Source of the DNA: a virus
Lineage: Duplodnaviria > Caudoviricetes
Strand: one strand, 5' to 3'
DNA: 64,000 nt
IMG/VR virus record: IMGVR_UViG_3300028591_000200
Coordinates: 4,132-68,131 of that record
The position numbers and the translations under genes are program-made. Under the pieces are notes generated by a model. The model did no database searches, had not been told where the DNA came from, and worked only from the letters and a program-made list of their open reading frames with translations. Within the stretch, counting starts at the first letter, position 1. Every line of letters begins with the position of its first letter. Shown piece after piece: positions 4,782 through 37,851 of the stretch.

Positions 4782-5003
4782 ATGAAAAGATATATTAAAA
4801 GTAGTTTTAATCCTAAAACCATAGAGTATGGCGGTTACTTCATTGATCATTATGAGTACGATGATGGTACAGAAGAATTTGTAGTAGATATTGATCTTGC
4901 TGGTGATGGCGATGAGCATTTCTTTGATTCTGAATCTGAAGCTATGGAATTTATTGATGATTTGAACAGAATGGATAATATTAACAAGAAATTAGGTTTC
5001 TAA
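4782..5003 (+). CDS. Small acidic protein with MKRYIKSS leader
   Basis: SD GGGG before ATG 4782; domain resembles the N-terminus of 36876-37190. Confidence 0.75.
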   Translation: MKRYIKSSFNPKTIEYGGYFIDHYEYDDGTEEFVVDIDLAGDGDEHFFDSESEAMEFIDDLNRMDNINKKLGF

Positions 5004-5019
5004 TATAAGGAGAAGATAA

Positions 5020-5427
5020 ATGAGTGGTGGTAGTTTAGATTATTTTTATAGCCAGTTAAATGACCATGTTGGAGATTTCAAAGACAGAGAGCTTGATGAA
5101 CTCGTAGGGGATCTTGCTGAACTATTCCATGTTAGGGAGTGGTATCTGTCCGGTGATTATTGCGAGGGTGAATGGAACGAATCAAGGGATAAGTTTAAGC
5201 AAAAGTGGTTTACTGATGTTAGCAGACAACAAAGAGTAGAACAGGCTTTTGATAATGCCAAAAATGAATTATTACAATCTTTCGGGTTTGAAACCAAATA
5301 TTGTAAGGATTGCAAGCATTGGACTGTTTCTGATAAGCACAAAGAAGGCAGATATGGTAATTGCGAATTTGAGACAGGGTGCTATATGCACAGGTGCGAA
5401 ACTTGTGAGAAGTGGGAGAAGAAGTAA
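5020..5427 (+). CDS. Hypothetical phage protein (MSGGSLDY) with Cys-rich C-terminus
   Basis: SD AGGAG. Confidence 0.75.
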   Translation: MSGGSLDYFYSQLNDHVGDFKDRELDELVGDLAELFHVREWYLSGDYCEGEWNESRDKFKQKWFTDVSRQQRVEQAFDNAKNELLQSFGFETKYCKDCKHWTVSDKHKEGRYGNCEFETGCYMHRCETCEKWEKK

Positions 5428-5500
5428 TATAAGGCTGATAACCTTTTATAGTTACAGTTAAATAATAGTAGATTACTTTTTAATATAAGGAGGTACAACT

Positions 5501-6121
5501 ATGGGTAAATATGGTTCTGATGAGCAGGTAAAATTCTTTTACAATGGCGAATTTTTAGGTGCTTCCGATCCGGAGTACATGGATTGCCGTAGGCTTTATG
5601 ATGTTATGCAATCAGATAAGGTATTGTCAGATTTAATTCTTGAATACTTAAACTCATTTGGTGATCCTATTTATCCTATCTCTGATGAAGAATGGGATGA
5701 GCCTGAAACAGATTCCAGCAAATTAGATATTTGGGATTTATACAATACCTTTATGGATTGGATTAGCCGTGAATACAGAGAATACCCGGAAGATTTTTAT
5801 GTAGACCTTTCTGTACCGAGATCAGGTAAGCATACTTTGGAAATCTTTACGGGTTCCGTAGCAGAAGAAAATGTAGTAGGTTCTAAAAAGATTAAGGCTT
5901 CCAAAGGTGGCAGAACCTATACAGCCCTCTACAATGGGGAGATCTTCGATGTTTCTTCTGATTGTGATACCTTAATTGAGCAATTAAAGGCTGAAATTGA
6001 TGAAGCTATTGCTGACGGTGATGTAGAAAACATTGATTTTGGCGAGTGCTGGGTAGAGGATGACGATGAAGAAGTAATGTATATCGCTGACGGTGATGCC
6101 GATTACGCAGAGTATATTTAA
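5501..6121 (+). CDS. Acidic two-domain protein with internal KKIKAS linker
   Basis: SD GGAGG; C-domain homologous to the C-domain of 26812-27600. Confidence 0.8.
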   Translation: MGKYGSDEQVKFFYNGEFLGASDPEYMDCRRLYDVMQSDKVLSDLILEYLNSFGDPIYPISDEEWDEPETDSSKLDIWDLYNTFMDWISREYREYPEDFYVDLSVPRSGKHTLEIFTGSVAEENVVGSKKIKASKGGRTYTALYNGEIFDVSSDCDTLIEQLKAEIDEAIADGDVENIDFGECWVEDDDEEVMYIADGDADYAEYI

Positions 6122-6125
6122 TTAA

Positions 6126-6677
6126 ATGAAAATTTATATTCGCAACACTTCAAAAATTTATGCAGGAGCATCTTCTAAACCAGAGGGTGCTTCTAATTCA
6201 TTAAAATTCTATCATTATGATGATCGTGAATTTTCGGTTGGAGATGTGATAACTGGAAATTTTTATCCTACACAATTTGATGTTATTAAAGCGGAATACT
6301 CCAAAGTTTGTCCTGAAATTGATGACATAACTAAAGTTTTATATATGTATGACGCCCCAGTAGATGAATCCTTTGAGGTGTATAAGTTTGGCTATGTTGT
6401 TTCTCCGGATTGTTGTTTGCGAAGATTTTCTGATTATTCTTATGTAATGTGTTGTCTGCATATTAACGATATTGTCAGCAAACATTCCGCTTGGGGAGAA
6501 AAGACTTTATCTAATGTAATTTCTGAATACAGTACACTAATGGCTAATGCTTATATTGGGAATCATAATGCTATGAAATCTCTTAAAGATTCCTATAGTG
6601 TAGACATTTCTAATGAAATTGAGTATATCAGCAATAATGGAACTATTGTTTCAGTAATACAAAATCCTGATAAGTGA
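6126..6677 (+). CDS. Leader-bearing protein, possibly Arr-like ADP-ribosyltransferase fold
   Basis: MKIYIR leader; FYHxxxxxFxVGDxIxG loosely resembles the Arr N-terminal motif (weak). Confidence 0.45.
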   Translation: MKIYIRNTSKIYAGASSKPEGASNSLKFYHYDDREFSVGDVITGNFYPTQFDVIKAEYSKVCPEIDDITKVLYMYDAPVDESFEVYKFGYVVSPDCCLRRFSDYSYVMCCLHINDIVSKHSAWGEKTLSNVISEYSTLMANAYIGNHNAMKSLKDSYSVDISNEIEYISNNGTIVSVIQNPDK

Positions 6678-6736
6678 TAAACCTTTTATTTATATGAATT
6701 TATATTTTTTAACTATATAAAGGAGATTATAAGATT

Positions 6737-6970
6737 ATGCGTAGTTTTTATGTTTCAGTAAAAGATTTTATTTATGAAACTGTACCTGCAAATGCCCAGA
6801 TTTTAGTATATAGCAGTATGATGAGTGATCACGGAGAAGTATTATTTGAGGGTACTCCTGATGACTTGTTCGATAATAATAAGCCACTTGCACAAGATTT
6901 TACTTCTTGGCTTATAGATGAGGCTGTGGCAAACAACAATGTCCTTGAAATAGGTTGTTTTAAGAGATGA
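6737..6970 (+). CDS. Hypothetical protein
   Basis: SD AAGGAG within repeated 5' UTR. Confidence 0.7.
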   Translation: MRSFYVSVKDFIYETVPANAQILVYSSMMSDHGEVLFEGTPDDLFDNNKPLAQDFTSWLIDEAVANNNVLEIGCFKR

Positions 6971-7018
6971 TCCAAGATAATATCTTTATAGCAATAATAT
7001 AAAGGAGATTATAAGATT

Positions 7019-7462
7019 ATGAAAAGATATATTAGTGCGGCAAATAGACGGAAACAGCTTATAGATATTACATATTTCTATCAGGAGAATAGAGGTGACG
7101 CACACAGACGGGCGAGCTTTTATTTAGGTATAGGTGCTACATATACTACTAATTTTTACCGTAGACAACCTGATACTGTATGTCAAAACTGGCAACTGGA
7201 ATTTAGAGGGGACAAGATAGTTAATCTGGCTGATGCAGAGATAATAGAAGATTATATATATGCTATCAGTTATATAATCCGAAATCATCGTGATTTATTT
7301 CCGTCAGATGTCGATTTTAGTAGTTGTGGTAGAGCAGATAGGATTTTAGGCATACTGGATAGTCAATATTATGGGATTACTATCTATTTAGATGACAAGT
7401 CTGAATTTGAATTAGTCAGGAATGTTTTATCCGAAGAGGGATTAGTGCTGGAAAAGAAATAA
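7019..7462 (+). CDS. Protein with MKRYISAA leader
   Basis: SD AAGGAG. Confidence 0.75.
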   Translation: MKRYISAANRRKQLIDITYFYQENRGDAHRRASFYLGIGATYTTNFYRRQPDTVCQNWQLEFRGDKIVNLADAEIIEDYIYAISYIIRNHRDLFPSDVDFSSCGRADRILGILDSQYYGITIYLDDKSEFELVRNVLSEEGLVLEKK

Positions 7463-7503
7463 AGATAACATATTTACAATAATATAAAGGAGAATTAAAG
7501 ATT

Positions 7504-7737: not shown

Positions 7738-7742
7738 TACTT

Positions 7743-8239: not shown

Positions 8240-8875
8240 ATGAAACGCTATATTGTTGCTACAACTATGCCTGATTTTGAAAATCTATATGATTTCAGTA
8301 GTTTTCATCAGCAGATAGATGATACGCTTAAATACTTTCCAAAATTTAAGGAACCTATAAAATCTTCGTTATGTAAGCGGCTGAACAACAAGCCTATAAA
8401 TCAGTTGACACTTGAAGATATTGCGGTTCTTTATACAATGTATTGGACTTGGTATATGGGTGAACGATATAGTCAAGACGGCGATTTTATAAAGTGGCTG
8501 GCAGACGCTTGGGAGTGGCATGAAGAAGATTTTAGATCATGCTATGACTGGGTTCATACCTTTACTTTTCCGTTGACAATTTATAGGGCGGTTACTGATA
8601 AGCAGGAGCTTACCCAAGATATATCCGGAAAATCAAGAGCATGGTCTTGGACTACGGATCCTAATTTGTATTCTGCGGATAATTCCGCTTTTAAGAATTG
8701 CAAGAATGTCTATTCCGCAGAGATAAATGCTAATGTCATATCCAACATATACACTATTTCAAATTTTGTGTCCTATTCCTCTCGCCCTCAATACGGCAGA
8801 TACCCTGAATGTGAAATAACCCTAAAAGACCGATTTAAGATGTCAGATCTACATAATCTGACAAAGATAAAGTAA
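8240..8875 (+). CDS. Putative R-S-E clade ADP-ribosyltransferase with MKRYIVAT leader
   Basis: LTIYRAV (R), WSWTTD (S-x-T), PECEIT (ExE) in canonical order. Confidence 0.65.
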   Translation: MKRYIVATTMPDFENLYDFSSFHQQIDDTLKYFPKFKEPIKSSLCKRLNNKPINQLTLEDIAVLYTMYWTWYMGERYSQDGDFIKWLADAWEWHEEDFRSCYDWVHTFTFPLTIYRAVTDKQELTQDISGKSRAWSWTTDPNLYSADNSAFKNCKNVYSAEINANVISNIYTISNFVSYSSRPQYGRYPECEITLKDRFKMSDLHNLTKIK

Positions 8876-8941: not shown

Positions 8942-9667
8942 ATGAGATTGCAAAGAATCTATTCATCAAAGATATATTTAACCAGCTCTCGTAAAGATAG
9001 GATTCATGCCGCTATACAGGATCCTATCAATGTTGAGTTAGTTCAGCAACTTTCAGATTATCTTGATGATGAAGCTAAAATGGAGTTAGAGGAAGCCCAG
9101 TCTGAAATTAAGCAGAAGGCTGAAAAGAGTGAAACGGACAAGTCAACCGAACAATCTTCTTCATCTTCCGAGGATTCTTCAAGACCTACACTTCCAACAG
9201 GTAATTCTTCCTTTTCGGGTAGCCCCTTGGCTGACTTCGGTGAAGATGAGTTTTCTGATGTTGATGATGCTGGTGTAGACACAGACACTTCTGATGAACC
9301 TGCCGATGAAATAGTAGAATCTGTAACCCAAGAGGGTGAACCCATTACCGCTACTTCTTTAATTTGGACTACTATTGAGGATATAGTAAGCGATTGTGAT
9401 ACTATTAAGGGTACTCTTAACACAAGAGAAGATACCAGCGGTGTTACAAGATTAGAAGTAAAAGATAATGAACTTTGGATTTATTACAATGATGACAGCA
9501 ATCTTAATGATAAGATGATTGAAGTAATCAGCGTACTTAATTCCACTGGATATACTTATTTGAAGTTCAACCGACTTGCAAGATCTAATAATGCCATTGT
9601 ATTTGACATCAATCTTAATTTTGCAGATCAGATTAAGTCAAACAAGGAGTTAGAAGAAAAGAAGTAA
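8942..9667 (+). CDS. Hypothetical late protein with acidic linker (prohead-core-like?)
   Basis: Late motif at 8881; RIYSS and ITATS motifs. Confidence 0.75.
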   Translation: MRLQRIYSSKIYLTSSRKDRIHAAIQDPINVELVQQLSDYLDDEAKMELEEAQSEIKQKAEKSETDKSTEQSSSSSEDSSRPTLPTGNSSFSGSPLADFGEDEFSDVDDAGVDTDTSDEPADEIVESVTQEGEPITATSLIWTTIEDIVSDCDTIKGTLNTREDTSGVTRLEVKDNELWIYYNDDSNLNDKMIEVISVLNSTGYTYLKFNRLARSNNAIVFDINLNFADQIKSNKELEEKK

Positions 9668-10725: not shown

Positions 10726-11256
10726 ATGAGAATTTCTAAATCTACAAAGACAGATGTAAAGGCTTCAGTAGAACCTAATACGCCTGATGCAAATAAGGCA
10801 AAGTTGGTAAGACAGATTATTAAGCAAGCAGAAGAAATTAGAGATTATTTCCAGTCTCATAATAATAATCTTAATCGTACACAGGAACAGTATTTAGAAG
10901 ATTTGTCTGACGGTATTGATAATCAGTCTGTTATGGCTATCCGTGAGGCTGTTGAGAGCCTTAAATTTAATAGTAAGAATCTTCGTAAGGAGCAATATTA
11001 TCTTATAGAGGATTTGTATGATGAGTTCAACTTGGCTAATGGTAAGTTTGAGGGTATGGGCAGACCGGGTTCTGATGATGTAGATGCTTGTGGAGACATA
11101 AAGGCTTCAAAGAAACTTTCTGCTAATGATCAGGCATTAACCCATATCAAAGCGGCAATAGACATTCTCGGTAAGTCAGGTCAGAAGGATGAAGTTACAA
11201 AAGATTCTATTGCTAATCTTGCTACTGTAATGTTTGATATTAAGGGAAATAAGTGA
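10726..11256 (+). CDS. Hypothetical protein with VKAS/IKAS motifs
   Basis: SD GGAGG; DVKAS and DIKASKKLSAN. Confidence 0.75.
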   Translation: MRISKSTKTDVKASVEPNTPDANKAKLVRQIIKQAEEIRDYFQSHNNNLNRTQEQYLEDLSDGIDNQSVMAIREAVESLKFNSKNLRKEQYYLIEDLYDEFNLANGKFEGMGRPGSDDVDACGDIKASKKLSANDQALTHIKAAIDILGKSGQKDEVTKDSIANLATVMFDIKGNK

Positions 11257-11268: not shown

Positions 11269-11721
11269 ATGAGAAGATTTACTGTTTATCCTAAAAATTA
11301 TGTATCTGCTACAACAAAGAAAGAACTGGAACAACGCCGAAAAGGTTTAAGGGATGCTCGCTATTCTGAATTAGAGCAAGCAGGTGTTACCCGTGATGAA
11401 ATTAGAAACGCTGGATTTTTTAGCAAATTAAATTCTCATCTTCCTGCTGGTCGTGCTGAATATTACAATACCCAAAGCGAAGAACTCGATGCTATTGATA
11501 TGCTACATTCTATTTTGGCTTATGAGCCGGGGCATACTGTTGATAGCTTAATGGCAAATAGATATATGCAGAGGTACATTAAATCCTTGGGCGCAGATCG
11601 TGTTGCTGAACTATGTCAGCAAGAGTTAGATGAGTTTGCTAATGCAAGAGTAAACAAAGATGTATTTGTTGATGACGAGGGCTTGTCCTATAATTCTGTT
11701 ACTTTCAGAGATGAAGAATAA
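11269..11721 (+). CDS. Hypothetical protein with leader variant (KNYVSAT)
   Basis: SD GAGG. Confidence 0.75.
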   Translation: MRRFTVYPKNYVSATTKKELEQRRKGLRDARYSELEQAGVTRDEIRNAGFFSKLNSHLPAGRAEYYNTQSEELDAIDMLHSILAYEPGHTVDSLMANRYMQRYIKSLGADRVAELCQQELDEFANARVNKDVFVDDEGLSYNSVTFRDEE

Positions 11722-14408: not shown

Positions 14409-14993
14409 ATGTTAATCGGTATGGATAACGAACCTAAAACCGTTGGGGGAGTGGACAATACAGATGTTTCTCTTACTAATCCCCTACTAATAGCACAAAT
14501 AAATCAAGCGGCAGAGATGCGTACATCTCTCTTAACTTGCACTACAAGTGATTTAAGATCCGCAAAAGTAGCATTACAGAATATAGCCGTATTACAGATA
14601 TATCACGAAGTAGCAAAGATTATCCGTTTTACGGAACAAATGGATAGGTGGGAAGATAAGCTCTACGACAGTATGGATATGTGCATAGGCGGTATGGATT
14701 CCGCCGATCCTGCTACTTTAATGCTAATGCTTAAAGTGCAGGGGGATTTATACAAGACTATGGTATTATCCCAAGAGTTGTTAAAGCCTTATATGAATAT
14801 TGATTTAGAAGCCATAGCCCCACCCAAAGCCATAAACGAAGATACCTCTTTTGGTGCCGCTATACTACCGAGGGAATCAAGAGCAGTAATCAGAAACGGC
14901 GCACAAGCACTTTTAACCGAACTCCGTAAAACTGAAAACCTTCCAGTAGACGAGAACAATAATGACGGAAATAGTACAGCCGATACACAGTGA
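14409..14993 (+). CDS. Helical protein upstream of TerL; candidate terminase small subunit
   Basis: Position overlapping the TerL start; late motif at 14371. Confidence 0.4.
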   Translation: MLIGMDNEPKTVGGVDNTDVSLTNPLLIAQINQAAEMRTSLLTCTTSDLRSAKVALQNIAVLQIYHEVAKIIRFTEQMDRWEDKLYDSMDMCIGGMDSADPATLMLMLKVQGDLYKTMVLSQELLKPYMNIDLEAIAPPKAINEDTSFGAAILPRESRAVIRNGAQALLTELRKTENLPVDENNNDGNSTADTQ

Positions 14994-21934: not shown

Positions 21935-21953
21935 ACTTGGGGAATAATGCCAT

Positions 21954-22421: not shown

Positions 22422-22436
22422 ATAAGGAGACTATTT

Positions 22437-26811: not shown

Positions 26812-27600
26812 ATGGGTGCTGGTGCAGGTTATACTATTGAAACTAAAGATGTAAAGATTGTTGGCGATGTTCAGATCAATTCCTTTGAGAAGATCGGAGA
26901 AGATAGTAATGCTATTTTCCGTTATGATGTTATTGATGTAGATTGTAATATCTCTCTTATTGGTTCAGTTAGAGCTACATCTTATATGTTCGGGTGCGAC
27001 TGGATTAAGGATGTTCCTATGACTGTTACAGGGGTATCTATTAATTTTCTCAATGATGGAGGTAATGCTGAAATTTCAGAGGGCGATATTGCTGACATAC
27101 TTAATAATACCCAAAATTATATCGGAGAAGCTATATATGGTGGTGGTTGGTCACATTCTACCTTTGACGGTACTTTTGAACTTCGCCCTGAAGATGATTA
27201 TGCAGATGATATTGATAATGTAATTATTACTATTGATAATAAGTATATTGTAGATTTCATTGATCTTGCCGTTACCGGAGATAACAAAGAATATTCCGTA
27301 GTCCTTAATGGGGAGCCAGTTGATTCATTTGAAGATCAGGATGAAGCTATTGACCAGTTGGATGCGTGGATTCGTGATGACATTTCTGCAAAGGGCATTG
27401 ATAGCATTGATTTTTCTGAATGTTTTGTTGAAGAACTCTTTTGGCAGGAAAATGTTGATGGTGAAATTGATTTCGTGGAACCTTGGTATGACAACATTGT
27501 ATATCGTGCAGATGAGAGCGATTTTGAGGATTTTTTGGGTGCTGTGGAAGAACTCAATGAAGAAGATGATACCGGAGTTGATGAAGGATTTGATATTTAA
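26812..27600 (+). CDS. Acidic two-domain protein
   Basis: C-domain homologous to the C-domain of 5501-6121. Confidence 0.8.
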   Translation: MGAGAGYTIETKDVKIVGDVQINSFEKIGEDSNAIFRYDVIDVDCNISLIGSVRATSYMFGCDWIKDVPMTVTGVSINFLNDGGNAEISEGDIADILNNTQNYIGEAIYGGGWSHSTFDGTFELRPEDDYADDIDNVIITIDNKYIVDFIDLAVTGDNKEYSVVLNGEPVDSFEDQDEAIDQLDAWIRDDISAKGIDSIDFSECFVEELFWQENVDGEIDFVEPWYDNIVYRADESDFEDFLGAVEELNEEDDTGVDEGFDI

Positions 27601-27614
27601 GGAGATGAATAACT

Positions 27615-27878
27615 ATGCAGGATTATGAAGTAAAAGATTTTATTGATATGGAAATCGAGCAGAAGTTGGATTACCTTTGGGATCTGTTTCTTGATTTGGG
27701 AATCTGTTCAGAAGAAACATTAACCGTAGTCGTTAAGATAAATGGGTACAATGCTCAAACAATGGAAGATGTTTTATATGTAACTACTGGGCTTCGTAGC
27801 ATAGAACAGCTTTGTGATGAGTTCGAACTTTCTCCCGAAGATTATCCTGAACTGTTTCATATTGATACCGAAGAATAA
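27615..27878 (+). CDS. Small acidic phage protein (G...EE.L..V..INGYN...L)
   Basis: SD AGGAG. Confidence 0.75.
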   Translation: MQDYEVKDFIDMEIEQKLDYLWDLFLDLGICSEETLTVVVKINGYNAQTMEDVLYVTTGLRSIEQLCDEFELSPEDYPELFHIDTEE

Positions 27879-27890
27879 AGGAGCATATTC

Positions 27891-28250
27891 ATGAAACGCT
27901 ATATGCCAAATAGATCTGCCAGCAATAGATCCAAGTATGTTAGATCAGATATAAACTCCTATTCTCCGAGATACTTTGCGAACATGGTAAGTTGTGCAAC
28001 CGAAGATGAAGATGATTATGGAGATAACTTCTTAATAGAAGGATTTTATGATAATCAGAGAAGGAGTTTAGCAGAATCCGCAGAAACTTCTGATGTGTCT
28101 GCACTCAACGAACTTGCCAATGAGTATGCTAATAAAGGGTACTATATTGTAGTTCATGACCTTATAGATGGTACGGTCACTGAATTTTCTGCGGATACTT
28201 GGTTTGATGAATTAGCACCCAATGGCGCTTTATTATTTATGAGATGGTGA
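27891..28250 (+). CDS. Protein with doubled leader (MKRYM...KYVRSDINSYS)
   Basis: SD AGGAG. Confidence 0.75.
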   Translation: MKRYMPNRSASNRSKYVRSDINSYSPRYFANMVSCATEDEDDYGDNFLIEGFYDNQRRSLAESAETSDVSALNELANEYANKGYYIVVHDLIDGTVTEFSADTWFDELAPNGALLFMRW

Positions 28251-28259
28251 GGTATTATT

Positions 28260-28661
28260 ATGAAAAAGTATGTTAGAGCAAATGCCGGGAGCAATCTTGT
28301 TTATCACAACTATGGTGATGTGAATTTTGCTGATTTCGGAAGGTTAGTTGCCAAGGATCCGGATAGAGAAAATTGCTACTATGTAATCACTTGTGATCCT
28401 GTTTATGACACGGCTGAACCTACATGGTCTATTACTGAAAACTATGTCGATTTGGAAGATGACTGGTTTGATGTAGATGAGATCAATAGGTGGGCAGGTA
28501 GTTCTCTTGAAACCGAACCTGAAGCACTGGCTTTCATGATTATTGATTATTACGGCTCACAGAACCCTTATGATGATAGAATGGTATCATCAGAAGAAGC
28601 TGAAAAATTCTTAAACAGCCTTAATGTAGCAGACGAAGTATATTGGGGAGCATCTGTTTGA
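28260..28661 (+). CDS. Acidic protein with MKKYVRAN leader
   Basis: SD GAGGT. Confidence 0.75.
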   Translation: MKKYVRANAGSNLVYHNYGDVNFADFGRLVAKDPDRENCYYVITCDPVYDTAEPTWSITENYVDLEDDWFDVDEINRWAGSSLETEPEALAFMIIDYYGSQNPYDDRMVSSEEAEKFLNSLNVADEVYWGASV

Positions 28662-28682
28662 TTTTTATTGAAGGGAAAATAT

Positions 28683-29069
28683 ATGAAGAAATATATCAAG
28701 TCAGACATAAATTCTTATTCTTACACAGGTTCAGGTTTTGCAGATGATAGTATCGTTTTGGCACACTACACTAAAGGGGACAGTAATCATTACGATGATT
28801 GGGTAGAGGTGTCCTTAATCCAAGACGGTTTTACTTGTTATGTTGAAGTAGAGGATTTCTATGATGATGAGCGTACATATTACAAGGCTTACTGCATGTC
28901 CGATATTGAATCTGCATTAGCTGATTTTAATGAAAAGGCAAAGGCTTTAGGTTGCTGGAAAACTACTACTTTAGCTGATTTAGATATGCACTTATCCGAG
29001 GGTTACGGAAAATCCATATATGATTATCTCCCCGGCGGCTATTATGATAATTTAAGGAAAAACAAATAA
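28683..29069 (+). CDS. Acidic protein with MKKYIKSDINSYS leader
   Basis: ATG 28683 with AAGGG SD. Confidence 0.75.
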   Translation: MKKYIKSDINSYSYTGSGFADDSIVLAHYTKGDSNHYDDWVEVSLIQDGFTCYVEVEDFYDDERTYYKAYCMSDIESALADFNEKAKALGCWKTTTLADLDMHLSEGYGKSIYDYLPGGYYDNLRKNK

Positions 29070-29130
29070 GTGGTGCAAAAGCGACATTTAACAACTTTGT
29101 TGAAGAATATAATTAAGGAGAATAATCACT

Positions 29131-29406
29131 ATGTCAAGAATACCACAAGACGAACTTACCATATTAAAAGCGGCAACTGCCGTTAAGACAGTAGCGGCAA
29201 GTGCGGTGGCAGAATTAGAGGAGATGTCTGTTGCTCATCTTATCAATACCGCCGCTAATACTGGTGAGTATCAAGCCGTGTATAGCAAACCCATAAGTTC
29301 AGCATTAAGAACTAAACTGGAAGGGCAGGGATATACCCTTTCTTCTCCTTACCCGATTGCTAAACCCGGGGATGAAACAATTATTAGCTGGAAAGACGCT
29401 GAATAA
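29131..29406 (+). CDS. Small Ala-rich protein, possibly structural
   Basis: SD AAGGAG. Confidence 0.7.
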   Translation: MSRIPQDELTILKAATAVKTVAASAVAELEEMSVAHLINTAANTGEYQAVYSKPISSALRTKLEGQGYTLSSPYPIAKPGDETIISWKDAE

Positions 29407-29414
29407 AATTAACT

Positions 29415-29930
29415 ATGCCTGAAACCGATCACGGAAAGAAAGCAGAGAAGAAGATCAAGGAGTGGTTGAACAGACCACAAGACGGATATAGTTTCGATAG
29501 AATACCCGATCAGATGACCGGGTATTATCGCATTTCAAGGAACATTTGCGATTTTATCTGCTATAAATATCCTAATATGTATTACATTGAATCCAAGTGT
29601 ACGGAGCATGATAGGTTCGATTTTAGCGAATTATCTGATACCCAGCGAAACGGGTTACGGCTTAAATCTGATATTTTAGGTGCATACGGACTTGTTATAG
29701 TATGCTTTGCTTATTATAAACGAGCCTTTGTATTCAATATACGAGATATTGCTGACATAGATCCTGACAAGGACATTGACGCAGATGATAAGACTTTCCT
29801 TACAATTAAATCAGTAAACATTAAAAAGATAGATAAGTGGACTATCCCATATAGGGAAATTCGAACCACACCCAGTAGAAAAGAGTTTTTAGATTACGAG
29901 GGTGAGCTTGAAGAATATATCCCAAAATGA
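29415..29930 (+). CDS. RecU-like Holliday junction resolvase (PD-(D/E)xK)
   Basis: GKKAE...RIPD...CDF...IESK...F....LSDTQ. Confidence 0.75.
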   Translation: MPETDHGKKAEKKIKEWLNRPQDGYSFDRIPDQMTGYYRISRNICDFICYKYPNMYYIESKCTEHDRFDFSELSDTQRNGLRLKSDILGAYGLVIVCFAYYKRAFVFNIRDIADIDPDKDIDADDKTFLTIKSVNIKKIDKWTIPYREIRTTPSRKEFLDYEGELEEYIPK

Positions 29931-29983
29931 GATAACCTTTAATACTATATATGAATAATTATTTTATATAAGGAGATACACCT

Positions 29984-30934
29984 ATGGCTGATTACAATGA
30001 GGAACTTGTAAGCGTTGTCAAGGAAGCATTAAATAGGATTCTTGATGCTGATGGCACTATTGAATACTATGTGGATTATAGAGATAGAGGTTGCTTTAAT
30101 TCTGCTGAAGATATTGAGAAACTTGCTAAATATCTGAAAGAAGCTGGGGGAGATGTAAAGACTGCGGCTACTTGGGCATTTTATGATAACCCTGATGCTT
30201 ATACTGTTTCAGATGATTTAGAGAATTATGTCAGAGAAGAAGTAGAAAAAGCCGTTTCTGATTATGATAGATCTAATGGCACTACTTTATCTGCTGAATT
30301 AGAAGATATAGATAACAATATGGAATTTTGGGATTTCTTGGAATATTGTGGATATAATGGTGTTAATATTCCATGCGAAGAATTTTATCCAAGCGAGATT
30401 TGTTTAGATATTACACTTGCTACTTATGAAGAAGCTAACCACGAGGGTTATATCATTGATTTCTTTGGTGGTTATTATCCTCATACCTCAAATATTGAAG
30501 ATCCTGAAATGCGTGATAATATGCTCGTAGAATTTATGCAATCACAGGGATTAGAACCCGAAGATGTCTTTGATGAAAGTAAGTCAGGCAAGGTATTAGA
30601 TAGTGTTAGAGCAGAAATAAATAATATGTCCTCTAATATTGATTTCCTTACTGTATGTGCTTCGTTTGATTTATCTGATGCTACCCGACTATTAAGTGGT
30701 GATTTTAGTTCCATTACGATCAATCCGGGAACTACAATGGGTATATTTGATTCTTGGAATGGTGGCGGTTCTATCTTTGAGATTGAAGTAGCATCTCCTT
30801 GGACAGTTCCGGCTGATAAGGTTGATGGTGTTAGCTTATCTACCAGCTCAAGAGGTGGTTATTCTGTTGCTGATGTTTACGGTATTAGCCCCGATGATAC
30901 AGGTTGGTACAGAGATACAGTTACAGTTAATTGA
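29984..30934 (+). CDS. Acidic hypothetical protein
   Basis: SD AAGGAG; late motif at 29933. Confidence 0.8.
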   Translation: MADYNEELVSVVKEALNRILDADGTIEYYVDYRDRGCFNSAEDIEKLAKYLKEAGGDVKTAATWAFYDNPDAYTVSDDLENYVREEVEKAVSDYDRSNGTTLSAELEDIDNNMEFWDFLEYCGYNGVNIPCEEFYPSEICLDITLATYEEANHEGYIIDFFGGYYPHTSNIEDPEMRDNMLVEFMQSQGLEPEDVFDESKSGKVLDSVRAEINNMSSNIDFLTVCASFDLSDATRLLSGDFSSITINPGTTMGIFDSWNGGGSIFEIEVASPWTVPADKVDGVSLSTSSRGGYSVADVYGISPDDTGWYRDTVTVN

Positions 30935-30951
30935 TTATAGGAGAGCTAACT

Positions 30952-31455
30952 ATGACATACATTAGTTTAGAAATTAAAACATCTTTATCCAATGCTTTCT
31001 TCTATTATGAAGAAGATACCGATAGATTTGATGAATGGTTTAAGAATAAGTTATCTGACGCTGGTTTATTTAACTGGGTAATGTATGATAATCCACAGGG
31101 TATTCCCGAAGTGTCTACATTAGAGTTATTCGTCAACGATTTTGACTATCAGCATACTCTCGATGTATCTATAAAAGTTGATGACGGTACTCATGATTTT
31201 GACGAACTCTACGATAATACAGCTCTGTTGGATTATATCGAGCGTGATGTTGCTCCGAGGGCTATTCGTGAACTTAACGAGATCTGCAATCAAGTCACCA
31301 TTCCTATGATTGGTGGTACATTTAACGATTTAATGTTTAGTGAAAATAATGAGTTCTATGCACTGATCCACTCCTACGGTAAAGATTACTTCGTTAGCCC
31401 TGATCTCAAAGAAGAACAGTTCTATGCAGAAGATGATTATGAAGTTTATGTATAA
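30952..31455 (+). CDS. Acidic hypothetical protein
   Basis: SD AGGAG at ATG 30952. Confidence 0.75.
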   Translation: MTYISLEIKTSLSNAFFYYEEDTDRFDEWFKNKLSDAGLFNWVMYDNPQGIPEVSTLELFVNDFDYQHTLDVSIKVDDGTHDFDELYDNTALLDYIERDVAPRAIRELNEICNQVTIPMIGGTFNDLMFSENNEFYALIHSYGKDYFVSPDLKEEQFYAEDDYEVYV

Positions 31456-31478
31456 ACTGATACAAGGAGATTAAAACT

Positions 31479-32300
31479 ATGTTTGATGATTATGATGATT
31501 ACAATGATACTTATGATGTACCATATGAAGTAACCCCTTCGGGATCTTCCGAAGTGCTTACAGGTCAGGATATGGTCGATGCCTTGGACTCATTAGAGCC
31601 GGGTACTCCAGTTTTAATTGATGATGGTGTGGGCAGATATATTCAGGTTATCTATATGGGTATAGGAGAAGTACAGTATCAGACTGTATTCCAGTTTTAT
31701 GATGGCAGTGGTATTAGCGGTACTTTCGGATTTTCCGCAAAATTCATTGTGAATAACCCTGATAAGGTATCTATAATTTTAGATGATAATGATCCAGCCA
31801 AAGTCACTAAACTATTAGAGGATGTCAACGCAACAACTTCTGTAAAGAGAAGATTTAGAGTAGATGCAAGCAAAAAGATTAAGGCTGGTAAATCTCCACT
31901 GTCTATACACAAGGCTTTTGACGATCTTGACGATAGATTTGATTTTGAGCTTGATGATGAATTTGAAATCTATGTAGGTAACGAAAGAGTACCCTGCTTT
32001 GTAACAGAATCCTTCGTATTTGGATACGGTTCAGGCGTAACATACACAATAGTAACCCCTGTATTTAGTGATAACCATTGGCAGATGAGTTCTTGGATCC
32101 AGCGTGGGCTTGATGAATACTTTAAGCAGGAGACAGACGGCAGTGACTATACCTATGGCTTGGGTGCCACAGGGGAGGCTAACATTTATGAGCCTGACAT
32201 TCCCGATGCCACAGCATATTATGTAACTGATGTTGATATATACCCTTATCAAAATGTCAATTCGTATGGCGAATATGGGATTGACAACGGATTAGAATAA
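31479..32300 (+). CDS. Acidic two-domain protein with basic VNATTS...VDASKKIKAG linker
   Basis: SD AAGGAG. Confidence 0.8.
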   Translation: MFDDYDDYNDTYDVPYEVTPSGSSEVLTGQDMVDALDSLEPGTPVLIDDGVGRYIQVIYMGIGEVQYQTVFQFYDGSGISGTFGFSAKFIVNNPDKVSIILDDNDPAKVTKLLEDVNATTSVKRRFRVDASKKIKAGKSPLSIHKAFDDLDDRFDFELDDEFEIYVGNERVPCFVTESFVFGYGSGVTYTIVTPVFSDNHWQMSSWIQRGLDEYFKQETDGSDYTYGLGATGEANIYEPDIPDATAYYVTDVDIYPYQNVNSYGEYGIDNGLE

Positions 32301-32335
32301 TTCATTTCACAATATTATTTTGGAGGCACAGAAAA

Positions 32336-33253
32336 ATGAAGATATTAAAGCGTTATTCATCTATCAGAGCAAATAAGATTGTTTCTAACCGTAGATCAAT
32401 AAGACCTCGTAGAATTTATTCTGCTGATGAAACTGATGTCGATGAGACTGATGTTGAAGAAGATGAGACCGAAGATACTGGATCTGCTGATGATAAGGAA
32501 GTCTCTCCCAAGGTGGAAGAAGCCTTTAATGACTTGATAGATGAACTTCAAGATACCGCCTTTGAGGATTTAGGTGACGCATTAGATGATATTGTTAATG
32601 ATCCGAAGTTATATGCTCTGCTGGCAGAGGGGTTCGGTGACGGTGCATTAGCAAATGTAAAAATGTCATCTTCCCCCGAAGCTATTCCGGTATTAAAACT
32701 AATTCCCTGTCAGTCTGAAATCGGATTGGATAACTCATTGTCATATCCGTTAAAGCAAGATTGCACAAATCTTTTTGAAGATACTGTTCAGATCGTTGCT
32801 CCGATAGTTACTTACGAAGGTCTGTTTGTTATTGATGGACACCACAGATGGAGCCAGCTTTACATGATGAACCCCGAAGCCAAGATCTCTGCTATCAATT
32901 TTGAATACACTAATGATTCTCCTTGGGTAGCTTTGAGAAATTTCCAAGGTGCAATCGCCGTTGCTAATAAGGATGTTCCGAAGTCTTATAGCAAGGTCAA
33001 TAATGTCTTTGAAATGTCAGAAGATGAGATTGCTGATTATGTGGATAAAAACATCTCCGATGCTTGCTGGAAGAGTTTAGTTAAGGTTGGCGTTTGTGAT
33101 GACAGAGATTCTGCTATTGAGTACATCACAAATAATGCTTTAAGGTTAAAGAAAAGCAACTATCCGTTCCCCGGCGCACCTGACCGTGAGTTTATGCCAC
33201 AGACCGATAAGAAGTCTATTGAGGTTGCAAAAGAAGGTCAGACAAATATTTAA
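32336..33253 (+). CDS. ParB/Srx-like domain protein with basic leader and acidic linker
   Basis: PIV...VIDGHHRW; N-terminus KRYSSIRA...RRIYSA. Confidence 0.65.
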   Translation: MKILKRYSSIRANKIVSNRRSIRPRRIYSADETDVDETDVEEDETEDTGSADDKEVSPKVEEAFNDLIDELQDTAFEDLGDALDDIVNDPKLYALLAEGFGDGALANVKMSSSPEAIPVLKLIPCQSEIGLDNSLSYPLKQDCTNLFEDTVQIVAPIVTYEGLFVIDGHHRWSQLYMMNPEAKISAINFEYTNDSPWVALRNFQGAIAVANKDVPKSYSKVNNVFEMSEDEIADYVDKNISDACWKSLVKVGVCDDRDSAIEYITNNALRLKKSNYPFPGAPDREFMPQTDKKSIEVAKEGQTNI

Positions 33254-33258
33254 TCCCT

Positions 33259-33627
33259 ATGAAAAGATATATCCGTTCTTACAATTTAGATGACATTCCT
33301 GAAGAAAATAAGCATGGCGATTGTTTTGTGTCTGCTTTGCATAATCAGGTAAATCATTTGAGAGAAGGCTATATTTTAGTTCATGGCATTGTTACTGGTC
33401 AGGGAGTAATCGAGGGTATTCAATATTGCCACGCTTGGTGCGAAAAGGGTGATATGGTATATGACTTGACACTCCCTTCAAAGTATCAGAAGATGCCTAA
33501 AATTCAGTATTATGCCATTGGTAATATTGAGATAACTAAAAGATACAAACCTGAACAGACATATCATATGATAGAGAAGTATGGGACTTATGGTCCTTGG
33601 GACAAGGTGTTTGAGGGCTACCCATAA
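33259..33627 (+). CDS. Papain/transglutaminase-fold Cys protease or deamidase with MKRYIRS leader
   Basis: GDC...HAWCE...YD triad. Confidence 0.6.
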   Translation: MKRYIRSYNLDDIPEENKHGDCFVSALHNQVNHLREGYILVHGIVTGQGVIEGIQYCHAWCEKGDMVYDLTLPSKYQKMPKIQYYAIGNIEITKRYKPEQTYHMIEKYGTYGPWDKVFEGYP

Positions 33628-33662
33628 TCCATAACCTTATATAAAGTCAGAGGTAATATATA

Positions 33663-34010
33663 ATGATTACATATAAAAACATTTCTTATTCTGCAAAAAC
33701 CTTTTACGGAGTGAAATTCAATCCCGGAGAGACTAAATCGGTTCCGGGTTACATCAATCATAGGAGTATGGTGAGGATATTTGGAGCGCCCAATTTAGGT
33801 ACTCCTGATGTATCTGATAAGAAGGTGCAGGAAACCCAACCAACATCTGAATCCGAACCTATATCTTTATTTGAAGAACCTAAACCGAGCAAAGTCGAAA
33901 CACGAGGGAGAAAGAAGAAGTCAACTGATCCCGAAAAGGAATCACTTGCAGAAACAGAGACTAAAATAGAACTTTCCAAGGAGGAAACTACTGATGGCAA
34001 TTACTGTTAA
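33663..34010 (+). CDS. Hypothetical protein upstream of sheath
   Basis: Late motif at 33632; overlaps the sheath start. Confidence 0.7.
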   Translation: MITYKNISYSAKTFYGVKFNPGETKSVPGYINHRSMVRIFGAPNLGTPDVSDKKVQETQPTSESEPISLFEEPKPSKVETRGRKKKSTDPEKESLAETETKIELSKEETTDGNYC

Positions 34011-36066
34011 TGTCATTTCCGAGAATAATGCTTTTGCGGTTGAAAATGCGAATTACTGTACTGTCGCACTTCCGATCACCGCTTGCTGGGGACCGGGATT
34101 TACACTTCCTACATCGGAGATGAGCGATTCTTCGGGTTCATCTGCTGATCCTATTGAAACCGCACTTGAAAATACCGCATGGGGTTTATTCCCTGCTGGT
34201 CCTGATGGACTTGAAGCCTTTATCGCTACATATAGAGGGCCATCAGCTAACTATCGTTCTACAAAAGATTATTCCTATTTTATGGCTTTATCTCTTTTGA
34301 ACGCTGGCTATGCAGTTCAGACTTGTAGATTATGCCCCGGTACCCCTGCTTCCATAACTCTCCCTGTTTCTTACACTGAAGAGTTCAAGGGTGATGGTGC
34401 GAAAAAAGAGTTCGCTTTGGCACAGCCTTGTGATGATGTAGTTTCTGTAAAGGTTGATGGTCAGACTCAAACTACAACCGCTTATACCATTACAGATGAC
34501 AACAAGTTGAAGTTTGATCCTGCACCTGCCGCTAACAAGGTGATTGAAATTGTTTACACATCAGGTGGTCTTGCCATAACCGCAAAATACCCCGGAACTT
34601 TTGGTAACAATTTAAGAGTTCAGCTTAAAAAGAAGGAATCAGCAGGATCTCTCTACTGGAATTTAATCGGTTACGCCGTAGATTCTACTGGTGCTACAAG
34701 AGCCGTTGAGAACCTGATTTTCGTATTTGAGGTTGAACACTCAACAGACACAATCGTAACTATTGATGAATTACAGTCAAAGTTCTTTGATTTTAGAGTC
34801 ATTAGAACAATTACTGACAGTTCTGCAATCGGGGGCAATTCATTAGTTGCTCTTATGGGTGGTTCAGATGTAGAGGACGCTACAGGTCAGACCGCTGGAC
34901 AGATTATGGCGGAAGCCGTTGCTCTTGCAAGATTAAGATACAATGTAGGTAGCGATTACCTTACTGTTCTTACCAACCTTGCACAACTCGCAGAAAGAGG
35001 AAAGGTCAGCAAGACTACTGCTGAAAATATCCGTTTCAACGAGTGGATTTATTCTCGTACTACTGGTGTTAAGGCTCAACTGGATCCATATGTAGGTACA
35101 AGAGATGGCGTTCTTGATCTCCTTAAAGACAGAATTAACTACAACCCTAACAGAATTATCTCACCTTGGGATGACCAAGATATTTCTGCTCTTGATCCTG
35201 ATCGTCAGATCCAAAATATGCTCCCTTCTCCTATGGCACTTGAACTTATGGAAGTTGCCGCAGATAGTAGATGTGCAACCGCATATATTGATGTTCCGAA
35301 GTCTTTACCTCGTAGCAGAGTTTGGGATGATACAGAGGGCAACTTTGGTTATGCTCAACAGTTATCCAGCCCCGAAGCATCTCCAGCAATTCTGACTGAT
35401 CCGCTTTATCCTTCAAATTCTGCATTATTCGCACCTTGGGGACAATATACTTATGCTGGTACATCAAGACAGGCTCCTGCTACACCTTCATTTATGGCAC
35501 TTCTTATTGAGAGAGCCATGATTAAGAACCAGTCTGCACAGTATGAGTGGGCATTACCTACTACGAGAAACAATAATGTTAAGTTAGGACAGCTCGCTTA
35601 CACCGTACCGAAGGCACTTCTTGATAACTGGCAAGCACCTGACGGAACGAGAGTTAATACGATTACCACTGTTCCTTCCCTCGGAACAACAATTTGGGGT
35701 AACGCTACATTATTTGATGTTCCGGTTGCTACATATCAGGCACTTATGAACCTCTCTACAAGAAAGCTCATCAATGCCGTTAAGGACACAGTATTCAGGA
35801 TCGGTATTGGTATGGAGTTCCAGTATAACGGTCAGGAAGCATACGCAAAGTTCTTTGCTGGTGTAACACCTCTCCTTGATACAATGAGGAATGTAGGTGC
35901 TATTGAGGATTACAAGGTTAAGATGTCGGCAGATATTAACAACATTGATTCGATCAACGCTAACTCCGTAGTTGGTACAATCTATCTCGTAATCGTAGGC
36001 GTTATCGAAAATATCACGGTTGACCTTATCGCATTACCACAGGGTACTGATCTCAATCAGTATTAA
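33994..36066 (+). CDS. Tail sheath protein
   Basis: WGP near the N-terminus, AKYPG.FGNNL.V, C-terminal N.I...G..IWGN.TL...L..RKL. Confidence 0.9.
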   Translation: MAITVNVISENNAFAVENANYCTVALPITACWGPGFTLPTSEMSDSSGSSADPIETALENTAWGLFPAGPDGLEAFIATYRGPSANYRSTKDYSYFMALSLLNAGYAVQTCRLCPGTPASITLPVSYTEEFKGDGAKKEFALAQPCDDVVSVKVDGQTQTTTAYTITDDNKLKFDPAPAANKVIEIVYTSGGLAITAKYPGTFGNNLRVQLKKKESAGSLYWNLIGYAVDSTGATRAVENLIFVFEVEHSTDTIVTIDELQSKFFDFRVIRTITDSSAIGGNSLVALMGGSDVEDATGQTAGQIMAEAVALARLRYNVGSDYLTVLTNLAQLAERGKVSKTTAENIRFNEWIYSRTTGVKAQLDPYVGTRDGVLDLLKDRINYNPNRIISPWDDQDISALDPDRQIQNMLPSPMALELMEVAADSRCATAYIDVPKSLPRSRVWDDTEGNFGYAQQLSSPEASPAILTDPLYPSNSALFAPWGQYTYAGTSRQAPATPSFMALLIERAMIKNQSAQYEWALPTTRNNNVKLGQLAYTVPKALLDNWQAPDGTRVNTITTVPSLGTTIWGNATLFDVPVATYQALMNLSTRKLINAVKDTVFRIGIGMEFQYNGQEAYAKFFAGVTPLLDTMRNVGAIEDYKVKMSADINNIDSINANSVVGTIYLVIVGVIENITVDLIALPQGTDLNQY

Positions 36067-36107
36067 TCATTCAGTCCTCTTTGACTTGGTGGAAAATAAC
36101 TGGGAAT

Positions 36108-36138
36108 AGGGTGGCAGAAATGCCACCTTGTTTCTTTC
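36108..36138 (+). terminator. Rho-independent terminator after sheath
   Basis: GGTGGCA-GAAA-TGCCACC plus T tract. Confidence 0.8.
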
Positions 36139-36179
36139 TGTAATCGTTATAATAGATATATAGTGTATTCGAGGTGAGT

Positions 36180-36533
36180 ATGAAAATTACAGACAGAGAA
36201 GCATTACAGTTATTAAAGCGAGCTAATTCCGAAACGCTTTGGGAGTATGTTGATGCCTATCCTGAAGATGAATTGGACAATCAATCGGAATTAGACTTGG
36301 TTATGGATGAATTAGAGTACCTTATTTTTATGTACGAAGATGAGGGTACTATTCATTATGATAATTTACAGTATTCCAAGACGGTACTGAAAGAAACCCA
36401 TAATGGGAAAACTATGCCAGTTACATTACCTGATTTTGAGTTTAAGTACACCAAACAAGAGGTACAGGATGCAAAAGATACTGTAAACGAGTACAAACGA
36501 CTGAAAAGATTATTTAAGGAGTATTATGGATAA
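36180..36533 (+). CDS. Hypothetical protein
   Basis: SD GAGGT at ATG 36180. Confidence 0.7.
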   Translation: MKITDREALQLLKRANSETLWEYVDAYPEDELDNQSELDLVMDELEYLIFMYEDEGTIHYDNLQYSKTVLKETHNGKTMPVTLPDFEFKYTKQEVQDAKDTVNEYKRLKRLFKEYYG

Positions 36534-36861
36534 TAACCCACTTTTTGATATTGCAGAGAAAGTAAAGCAACAAAGATTAGACGAGAACATAACATCTATT
36601 AAGAAGGATATTGAATCTATTATGGCAAATAACAGGCAGGTAAAGTTAATTGAATTACGAGTATTCCAAGATGTCGGAAGTACACGAACAGTAAAGGAGA
36701 TATTCATTAACCCCGATTATATTACTTTTATTGCAGAAGATGGATCTAATGCGTATGTGCATCTTACCAGCGGCACCTCACTTCATACTGTGGAAAGCCA
36801 TAAAGATATACTCAACCTCATTGAAGCCAGCAACACCTCGGATAAATCATACATTGGATAA
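36526..36861 (+). CDS. FlbD-like small beta protein
   Basis: IFINPDYI..I.E.....V.L.SG..L..VES..DI. Confidence 0.5.
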   Translation: MDNNPLFDIAEKVKQQRLDENITSIKKDIESIMANNRQVKLIELRVFQDVGSTRTVKEIFINPDYITFIAEDGSNAYVHLTSGTSLHTVESHKDILNLIEASNTSDKSYIG

Positions 36862-36875
36862 CCTTTAATAAGATT

Positions 36876-37190
36876 ATGGATGAATATGATTATAAAGGTT
36901 ATATAATTACAGAAGTACCTGAAGGGGACTATGTTGTTAATGGAATTAAATTTCCTTCATATGACGAAGCTTGTGATTGGATAGATGAGGTATTACATTA
37001 TCCGCCTTTTACTACAAATCCTAACCCAGTTCCGGAGCTTCATACATATCATATCTCCTATGTAACGAAAAGTTATGATCGTGGCTATGACGAATATATT
37101 ATGGCGTACACCCCGGAAGCCGCTGAAAAGTACCTTCGCAGGTTGCACCGTGACATAGCCTATATATCTGATTTTTACGAGGTTGATTAA
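36876..37190 (+). CDS. Hypothetical two-module protein (possibly leaderless mRNA)
   Basis: ATG 16 nt after the start of the AACCTT motif; no SD. Confidence 0.7.
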   Translation: MDEYDYKGYIITEVPEGDYVVNGIKFPSYDEACDWIDEVLHYPPFTTNPNPVPELHTYHISYVTKSYDRGYDEYIMAYTPEAAEKYLRRLHRDIAYISDFYEVD

Positions 37191-37192
37191 CT

Positions 37193-37603
37193 ATGAAGCG
37201 ATATGTTAAATCAGAAACCGAGGGCAGATATACAAAAATACAAAATGATGTTGTAGATAGATACAATATTATTCTTGATGAGTTTTCTACATGTAGGCGC
37301 AGAACCCATGCTCATATAAAAGAACGGAGAGTGTGCAAATGGCACCCAAAAAATTCTATTGACAGTACATTTGAACTTTTGCATGAAATCGGGCATATCG
37401 AAACTACCAAAAGTAATATGCGTAGATGTGAAGCAGAATACTATGCAACTCAATGGGCGATTGACACAGCAAAGGAATACGGTTTAACAATTCCTGATAA
37501 ACTGATTAAATTTTATCAAGATTATATAGATCGAGAGCTTAACCGAGGTGTGCGTAGGCATGGATCTGATTATGATACAGAGGGGTTAAAATTGAAGCCA
37601 TGA
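37193..37603 (+). CDS. HExxH zinc metallopeptidase (IrrE/ImmA-like) with MKRYVKS leader
   Basis: LLHEIGH...EAEYYA..WA. Confidence 0.7.
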   Translation: MKRYVKSETEGRYTKIQNDVVDRYNIILDEFSTCRRRTHAHIKERRVCKWHPKNSIDSTFELLHEIGHIETTKSNMRRCEAEYYATQWAIDTAKEYGLTIPDKLIKFYQDYIDRELNRGVRRHGSDYDTEGLKLKP

Positions 37604-37851
37604 AAAGATATATTAAAGCAAATTCTGAAAAACCTGTTTTAGATAACATAGATGTAGAGTGGTCTGATCTTGATGATGGTATTCAATTTACCATATATGA
37701 CGGTTCAGGTGAGGTTCTGCTGGAAGAACTGTTTAGTTACGAAGATGTGGATCCTGATTCCGTTTACGATTCGGCTTTTGAGATGGCGAGAGTAGCATTA
37801 TCCCAAAAGTACACTCTTTCTGATGATGTGCTGGCTAAATTAGAAACATAA
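37600..37851 (+). CDS. Small acidic protein with MKRYIKAN leader
   Basis: ATGA overlap. Confidence 0.75.
   Translation: MKRYIKANSEKPVLDNIDVEWSDLDDGIQFTIYDGSGEVLLEELFSYEDVDPDSVYDSAFEMARVALSQKYTLSDDVLAKLET

Follow-up and report, generated by a model that had tools for sequence, protein, structure and literature searches.

Sixteen proteins of an uncultured phage carry a short N-terminal leader, MKRYI[KR][AS] or a variant of it, on otherwise unrelated bodies. They are encoded in a 64,000-nucleotide stretch (here called the window) that covers bases 4132–68131 of the 68,131-bp IMG/VR virus contig IMGVR_UViG_3300028591_000200 (Caudoviricetes). We propose that this leader is probably a variant of the capsid targeting sequence (CTS) of phage T4, that is, an N-terminal capsid-targeting propeptide that would be cut after Ala or Ser as in the herpesvirus assemblins. 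It also seems likely that the tag belongs to a clade of ruminant-gut myophages of about 145–185 kb that build T4-type heads. A sequence-only reading of the window had already described the leader as a portable capsid-targeting or maturation tag akin to the T4 CTS. We find this claim reasonably well supported, in that the tag is clade-wide, confined to N-termini, placed on more than 100 protein families and ends in the motif of the head propeptides.

A six-frame scan of the 68-kb contig with the pattern M[KR][RKI][YF][IVM][KRSV][ASN] returned 12 matches, every one at the start of an open reading frame (ORF) on the + strand (4782, 6126, 7019, 8240, 21641, 21954, 22437, 28260, 28683, 33259, 37193 and 37600). 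The same scan gave no matches on the – strand and no internal matches. The pattern takes in a variant at 6126 and leaves out an extended leader at 27891; with 27891 in place of 6126, the list is that of the 12 starts named by the sequence-only reading, all of which were recovered on the + strand together with the variants it had placed at 6126, 11269 and 32336. Longer variants occur at four further starts (27891, 32336, 11269 and 8942); counted by the motif M-[KR]-[RKI]-Y-[IV]-x-[ASN], twelve + strand ORFs of the window have the leader and four to six others a longer form. The core motif is found at 11 of 142 N-termini in this genome versus 1 of 20,037 internal positions (Fisher p = 1.7e-23). 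Apart from the gene at 8942, which is described below, the leader genes of the window are as follows.

4782–5003, + strand: leader gene, 73 residues, MKRYIKSS, acidic body, no Pfam match.
6126–6677, + strand: leader variant, 183 residues, MKIYIRNTSKIYAGAS, with two site-like copies.
7019–7462, + strand: leader gene, 147 residues, MKRYISAA.
8240–8875, + strand: leader gene, 211 residues, MKRYIVAT, with a weak ADP-ribosyltransferase (ART)-like fold in the C-terminal half.
11269–11721, + strand: class 2 (longer) leader gene, 150 residues, MRRFTVYPKNYVSAT.
21641–21934, + strand: leader gene, 97 residues, MKRYVRAN, in a variable island downstream of the portal operon genes.
21954–22421, + strand: leader gene, 155 residues, MKIYIRAY, very acidic.
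22437–22766, + strand: leader gene, 109 residues, MKRYIRSS; the homologue in a complete relative (G013) begins MKRYIRCT.
27891–28250, + strand: extended leader gene, 119 residues, MKRYM...SKYVRSD.
28260–28661, + strand: leader gene, 133 residues, MKKYVRAN.
28683–29069, + strand: leader gene, 128 residues, MKKYIKSD.
32336–33253, + strand: leader variant, 305 residues, MKILKRYSSIRAN...RRIYSAD.
33259–33627, + strand: leader gene, 122 residues, MKRYIRSY.
37193–37603, + strand: leader gene, 136 residues, MKRYVKSE, a small HExxH zincin-like protein.
37600–37851, + strand: leader gene, 83 residues, MKRYIKAN, acidic.

The bodies behind these leaders had no meaningful similarity to one another in all-against-all BLASTP, which bears out the earlier description of them as unrelated. 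None of the 16 leader proteins of the window reached a Pfam cut-off, and PDB sequence searches with them gave nothing informative. Both chance as the origin of the motif and a paralogous family as the origin of the tag were rejected. The leader was not found in the approximately 70 small genes at 1–3.9 kb and 41–55 kb, the two blocks from which it had been reported absent. The region at 41950–50640 holds dozens of tiny early-type genes, each after a near-identical GAGGTAGATTGAT-ATG junction, and none of these has the leader.

Relatives of the phage were collected in two ways, with a narrow leader DNA pattern (44 stretches) and with the portal protein (24 related IMG/VR loci), which served as the anchor for comparison.

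19077–20597, + strand: portal protein (phrog_213).

Two complete relatives are rich in the tag. The genome G010 (162,817 bp with terminal repeats; portal 59% identical) has 23 tagged ORF starts and G013 (170,977 bp; portal 65% identical) has 18, all on the portal strand. N-terminal versus internal occurrence of the leader gave p values of 1e-33 to 1e-34 in the complete relatives. Together the fetched loci encode 150 distinct tagged proteins (median length 126 residues), which fall into 121 BLASTP clusters. Cargo families are seldom common to different genomes. Y4 is kept in 149 of the 150 proteins. The 17 orthologues of the 8240 protein are all tagged; in these M1, K2, Y4 and I5 never change, position 7 holds Ala, Ser or Thr, and positions 3 and 6 are variable. 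A more distant complete relative, G004, has six copies of an MKRVI-x-[AS] leader instead. There is also a second leader class, MKRxFTxxPxxx[IV]x[AS][ST], which is shared by the window gene at 11269 and five G013 genes that are adjacent or lie near one another (reverse-complement coordinates 98114–99698 and 160376).

Within G010, a 23-kb island (69945–92800, reverse-complement) holds 21 tagged ORFs, among them about eight paralogues of roughly 210–290 residues that start MKRYIKA[AS]KTIEDYE and are without a Pfam family. In a comparison with relatives L013–L026, the three leader genes at 21641–22766 of the window, which follow the portal operon, form a variable island, which is empty or occupied by other small genes in the more distant relatives. 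A full-text literature search for variants of the leader motif found no paper describing it, and a search on CTS-like tags in metagenomic phages returned nothing relevant.

Leader copies in the window differ in synonymous codons and the 150 tagged genes of the clade do so too. Arg3 is encoded by AGA in 73 genes, CGA in 25, AGG in 6, CGC in 6, CGT in 4 and CGG in 2, and Ser7 by TCN in 79 versus AGY in 14, with the qualification that the narrow leader DNA pattern biases the loci collected with it to AGA and AAA codons at the matched site itself. Because Arg and Ser are each encoded from both of their codon boxes, the constraint on the leader is at the peptide level, as the sequence-only reading had held. 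These counts bear on a very unlikely alternative, in which conservation would act on the nucleic acid or on translation, either as an A/U-rich start that aids initiation or as a microhomology junction for cassette swaps. The leader codons are indeed A/U-rich, metagenome contigs diverge right past them or begin to match at the start of a leader gene, and the early region of the phage does use standardised DNA junctions. However, the codon data contradict a constraint of this kind, since AGR and CGN codons for Arg, and TCN and AGY codons for Ser, are both used while the amino acid is kept; moreover, the motif is not in the many early genes.

The fold of the cargo appears to start downstream of the tag. 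An AlphaFold2 model of the 8240 protein had a predicted local distance difference test (pLDDT) score of 82, with residues 1–5 below 50, and in the structure of the 37193 protein the alignments run from residue 7–11 on. Atlas matches of tagged proteins begin at residue 7–16. The 37193 protein also provides the clearest view of the tag as a separate element. It has about 490 database homologues, and among the best 120 of these approximately 106 start directly at the M-x-K/R-Y/F-T-D-I-Q-N-E-V core, while a 9–10-residue N-terminal extension that equals the leader is present only in the approximately 14 closest. The tag is a portable add-on because most of these 120 homologues are without it. A weak further sign of portability, from single contigs, comes from junctions at the leader codons: a bovine-gut contig matches the phage as far as 21662, just beyond the leader codons of 21641, and then diverges, and in metagenome contigs from other animals another match begins at the start of 21954.

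As to what the tag is attached to, Pfam searches with 121 cluster representatives identified ART-PolyVal (two proteins), S-AdoMet lyase, phosphoribosyltransferase, LRR and LRV repeats, DUF5662 and DUF3293. The ART-PolyVal, S-AdoMet lyase and phosphoribosyltransferase domains would fit host-directed effectors. Enzyme identities had also been given to several window proteins, and these fared unevenly. An ART is weakly indicated for the 8240 protein, in which R116, S136-W-T and E190-x-E192 are conserved; nearly all of its fold matches are ARTs, with TreTu at Z 5.6 as the best and Foldseek E values above 1, and there is no Pfam match. The 37193 protein is weakly zincin-like (MPTase-PolyVal at a template-modelling (TM) score of 0.60, ImmA/IrrE at TM 0.50). 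For the 32336 protein, a 30-residue basic N-terminus with IRAN, IVSN and IYSA sites leads into an acidic linker and then a domain with DGHHR, and a ParB assignment is likewise weak, since the Pfam match to ParBc_2 (E = 0.036) is under the cut-off. The assignment of 33259 as a Cys protease or deamidase did not hold; its Atlas matches are unnamed viral clusters and a YunG-like lead was below 0.9.

Effector domains of polyvalent proteins have been proposed to enter the host together with the DNA. Two tagged proteins of relatives match ART-PolyVal and the 37193 protein resembles MPTase-PolyVal. Unlike polyvalent proteins, where such domains are modules of one giant protein, the proteins here are small and stand alone, each with its own tag.

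The link from the leader to the head comes from the complete relatives. PF03420 and PF07068 had no match on the 45%-complete contig itself; they match all four complete relatives, PF03420 above cut-off in two of them and PF07068 in all four. An HK97-type capsid (PF05065) and S78 protease (PF04586) gave no matches in the window's genome or the four relatives. Since Gp23-family and Peptidase_S77 matches are found and those of PF05065 and PF04586 are not, the head is of the T4 type and an HK97-type head is rejected. In all four relatives a Peptidase_S77 (T4 gp21) domain forms the N-terminus of a 468–507-residue ORF, next to which lies the gene for the Gp23-family capsid protein. In its C-terminal half the protease ORF has a coiled-coil, scaffold-like character.

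Leader residues 5–7 (I/V, K/R, A/S) equal a site motif of these head proteins. The scaffold halves contain [IV]-x-A-[STAG] sites such as IKAS, ITAA, ILAS, VTAS, IQAS and ITAS, and the capsid N-termini contain VTAG, ITAG and IMAS. A conserved boundary, [IV]-[TM]-A-A-T-N-T, stands directly before the conserved RPDFLELLP core of the capsid protein. Judged against composition-preserving shuffles, three scaffold halves have 6, 9 and 6 [IV]xA[STAGN] sites where 1.5, 0.9 and 1.1 are expected (p = 0.003, 0.0002 and 0.0008), and capsid N-termini have 3 where 0.5–0.8 are expected (p = 0.01–0.03). Genome-wide, no protein of G010 or G013 is denser in the site than the protease ORF; the capsid protein is third by this measure in G010 and sixth in G013. 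The T4-like motif [LIV]-x-E did not occur in the capsid N-termini of G004, G010 and G013 and was not enriched in the scaffolds, and no conserved Glu follows the leader in the tagged proteins of the clade. These results suggest that [IV]-x-[AS] is the cleavage site of the prohead protease.

From this we suggest the following sequence of events. The tag, through K2, Y4, I5 and the small residue 7, would dock a newly made protein on the core of scaffold in the prohead during its assembly. The scaffold-fused protease of the gp21 family would then cut after the Ala or Ser of [IV]-x-[AS], and the same enzyme would make an equal cut in the capsid propeptide and at sites along the scaffold. Once free, the cargo would remain in the head and be delivered together with the DNA. 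Co-folding of the relatives' protease domain with residues 1–60 of the 8240 protein scored 0.02 against a mark of 0.32, which speaks neither for nor against binding.

An unlikely alternative is that the leader serves as a processing site only, with head entry directed in some other way or with the protein not kept in the head. In its favour, just the last three leader residues match the proposed protease motif, and several proteins bear the site after basic N-termini other than MKRY. However, K2 and Y4 lie outside the tripeptide and yet are near-invariant. A protease of the T4 gp21 type works inside the prohead, and a cut by such an enzyme would itself imply a location in the head. Processing alone is also at odds with the T4 CTS, whose targeting function lies mainly in residues 4 and 7 (PMC9026906). 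Packaging of T4 IPIII needs no more than its first 10 residues, of which residues 8 and 10 direct processing (PMC9026906), and the T-even internal proteins have been described as diverse defence proteins with only the CTS in common (PMC3012670, PMC9026906).

The proposed targeting propeptide can be compared with the T4 system point by point. The T4 CTS is reportedly MKTYQEFIAE, and it and MKRYIKA are alike in an M-K-x-Y start and an ending of I-x-P1, where P1 is the residue before the cut. As with the T4 internal proteins (IPI, IPII, IPIII and Alt, from polymorphic ip loci), a short leader precedes unrelated proteins that turn over fast, and as in T4 an aliphatic-x-P1 site is common to the leader and to the capsid and scaffold propeptides. 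The window encodes a gp20-like portal and the relatives a Gp23-family capsid protein and a gp21-family protease. The phage differs from T4 in having a tag of 7 rather than 10 residues, a putative P1 of Ala or Ser rather than Glu, 12–23 tagged genes per genome rather than a handful, a protease fused to the scaffold and mostly acidic cargo; its system is, moreover, known here from sequence. The sequence-only reading had called the leader a different code. That wording overstates the case, in that the T4 logic of M-K-x-Y and aliphatic-x-P1 is kept; what stands is the P1 residue, probably Ala or Ser instead of Glu.

That P1 residue would bring the clade closer to the herpesviruses. T4 gp21 has the fold of the herpesvirus proteases (PMC5694885). 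Herpes assemblins are fused to scaffold and cut at Y-L-Q-A↓T and V-x-A↓S, the pseudorabies sites being YLQA↓T and VQA↓S (PMC4498786), and the candidate sites Y-[IV]-[KR]-A↓S and [IV]-x-A↓[ST] of the phage match this consensus of UL26-type enzymes. In the four complete relatives (L089–L092, from G013, G004, G002 and G010), protease and scaffold lie in one ORF, with an invariant I-A-A-x-T after the protease domain. Two of the four have V-T-A-S-T approximately 45 residues before the C-terminus, and a third has V-T-G-S-T. As in herpes UL26, the protease is N-terminal to the scaffold, and judged by motif the placing of I-A-A-x-T and V-T-A-S-T resembles that of the R and M sites. Unlike assemblin, the phage enzyme is a Pfam Peptidase_S77 and its putative site comes from motif enrichment. 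We know of no herpesvirus that uses the assemblin site as a cargo-loading tag.

Comparison with a culturable phage allowed the leader and the site to be followed beyond the clade. By portal tblastn the nearest cultured phages, at 22–23% identity, are Streptococcus phage vB_SagM-GXN1, Listeria phage LIS04 and Bacillus phage SP-15. In GXN1 (PQ819873.1, locus 26821–38900), several small genes close to those for head and tail open with MRLVRLTE, MRLVKLTE or MRLIRLNE, so that this phage has a recurring leader of its own, MRL[IV][RK]L[TN]E. In the GXN1 capsid N-terminus L-x-E occurs four times and [IV]-x-A not at all. The last tripeptide of the leader tracks the capsid-propeptide motif of the same lineage in three lineages, and this co-variation is what a protease-processed targeting peptide predicts. 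The giant phages phiKZ, 201phi2-1 and SPN3US likewise have head-internal and ejection proteins with propeptides, redundant sites and a gp21-like protease, gp175/gp245 (PMC9026906, PMC5694885). Their proteases differ in cutting after Glu (S/A/G-x-E), and their propeptides are mostly long (>100 residues), with no uniform short tag.

Another shared partner could in principle read the tag, for example a modifying enzyme of the ribosomally synthesised and post-translationally modified peptide (RiPP)/radical-SAM kind, a chaperone, or a factor for export or timing that has nothing to do with the capsid. We consider this quite unlikely. PF04055 (Radical_SAM) had no match in G000, G010 or G013, so no Radical_SAM gene is present in the last two, the complete genomes with the most tagged genes; the tag is without the hydrophobic core expected of a secretion signal; and a reader of this kind would not account for a tag that ends in the head-propeptide motif or for a leader and site that co-vary across lineages. 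A Sec or Tat signal was rejected because the tag has no hydrophobic core. A host-protease site of the Prp/L27 type was also rejected, since the L27 N-terminal extension has a motif unlike the phage tag and these phages encode their own protease.

Several points weigh against the targeting-propeptide interpretation. Packaging, cleavage and an anti-defence role are all read from sequence. Most of the cargo has no recognisable function, and it is mostly acidic (median pI 4.6–4.8, none above 8.5), whereas the T4 internal proteins IPII and IPIII are basic; we speculate that acidic cargo might point to inhibitors of the DNA-mimic type. The tripeptide motif is low in information and the per-protein enrichment p values are modest, and the G004 scaffold has just one [IV]-x-A-[STAG] site. 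The protease and capsid genes are not on the 45%-complete contig, so the link to the head is made through relatives with 56–65% portal identity. Finally, all gp21-family proteases studied cut after Glu (PMC5694885), and a cut after Ala or Ser would be a departure.

The site is also found in proteins without the typical leader. It occurs within the first 20 residues of 19 of 53 late-region genes versus 7 of 71 other window genes (p = 0.0007). Two genes of this kind are listed here.

8942–9667, + strand: conserved core gene, 241 residues; basic N-terminus with several sites (RIYSS, RIHAA), a DPIN block and an acidic middle.
10726–11256, + strand: 176 residues; basic N-terminal peptide that ends DVKAS.

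The 8942 gene is kept in all relatives, with a conserved C-terminal domain, and is located upstream of the terminase, away from the capsid gene. In all nine distinct homologues I-x-[AS]-[AST] keeps the same register ahead of a [DNS]P[IV]N block, and the product may be a processed head-core protein. Counterparts of the 10726 protein in relatives end their N-terminal peptide in VKAS, VTAN or VKSA. Beside the head genes of G010 (149926–150246) and G013 (102896–103300, both reverse-complement) there is a small acidic protein with basic N- and C-terminal tails that contain two or three [ILV]-x-A-S sites. It recalls the prohead core proteins gp67 and gp68 of T4.

The window has a G+C content of about 36%, and its + strand holds nearly all genes; CheckV estimated the contig to be 45% complete. 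Two further landmarks of the late region are given below.

14962–17412, + strand: large terminase (phrog_17415).
33994–36066, + strand: tail sheath (Phage_sheath_1C, E = 1.9e-4, under the Pfam cut-off).

Between terminase and portal lies an NAD-ligase-like ORF of 528 residues (17462–19048), a position kept in all relatives. Other recognisable genes of the window are those for a tail tube, a Holliday-junction resolvase and an SNF2 helicase. The promoter-like motif AA[CT]C[GT]T[TA]WWT occurs 27 times on the + strand and 7 times on the – strand, and it precedes operons with portal, sheath and leader genes. Small contigs from RNA libraries that are identical to the portal and its neighbours were found, and none of them spans the leader genes at 21641–22766.

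The contig DNA is complete in one sheep-gut metagenome run, which may be the source of the phage, and partial in a second sheep-gut study; shorter stretches were matched in bovine- and goat-gut runs. A megablast of 10 kb against cultured phages gave no match, and like the phage itself the members of the clade are all uncultured.

A fuller version of the proposal can be formulated, which we put forward tentatively and regard as somewhat less than an even prospect. According to this, the gp21-family protease of the clade has assemblin-type specificity (Y-[IV]-x-A↓S) and is fused to a scaffold with R- and M-like sites, the 7-residue tag alone loads hypervariable, mostly acidic effectors (>100 families, 12–23 per genome) for co-injection, and the tag marks injected anti-defence proteins.

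If the tag does act in this way, a 7-residue peptide would flag, by sequence alone, the proteins that an uncultured clade of gut phages delivers into the host, and it would yield a catalogue of more than 100 candidate families of early-acting effectors. A shorter tag that is perhaps orthogonal to the T4 CTS would also be a useful means of packaging proteins when phages are engineered for Gram-positive-type hosts. With cleavage after Ala or Ser, a head protease of the T4 family would stand between the phage enzymes that are specific for Glu and the assemblins of herpesviruses, and would thereby bear on the common origin of the phage and herpesvirus maturation systems.

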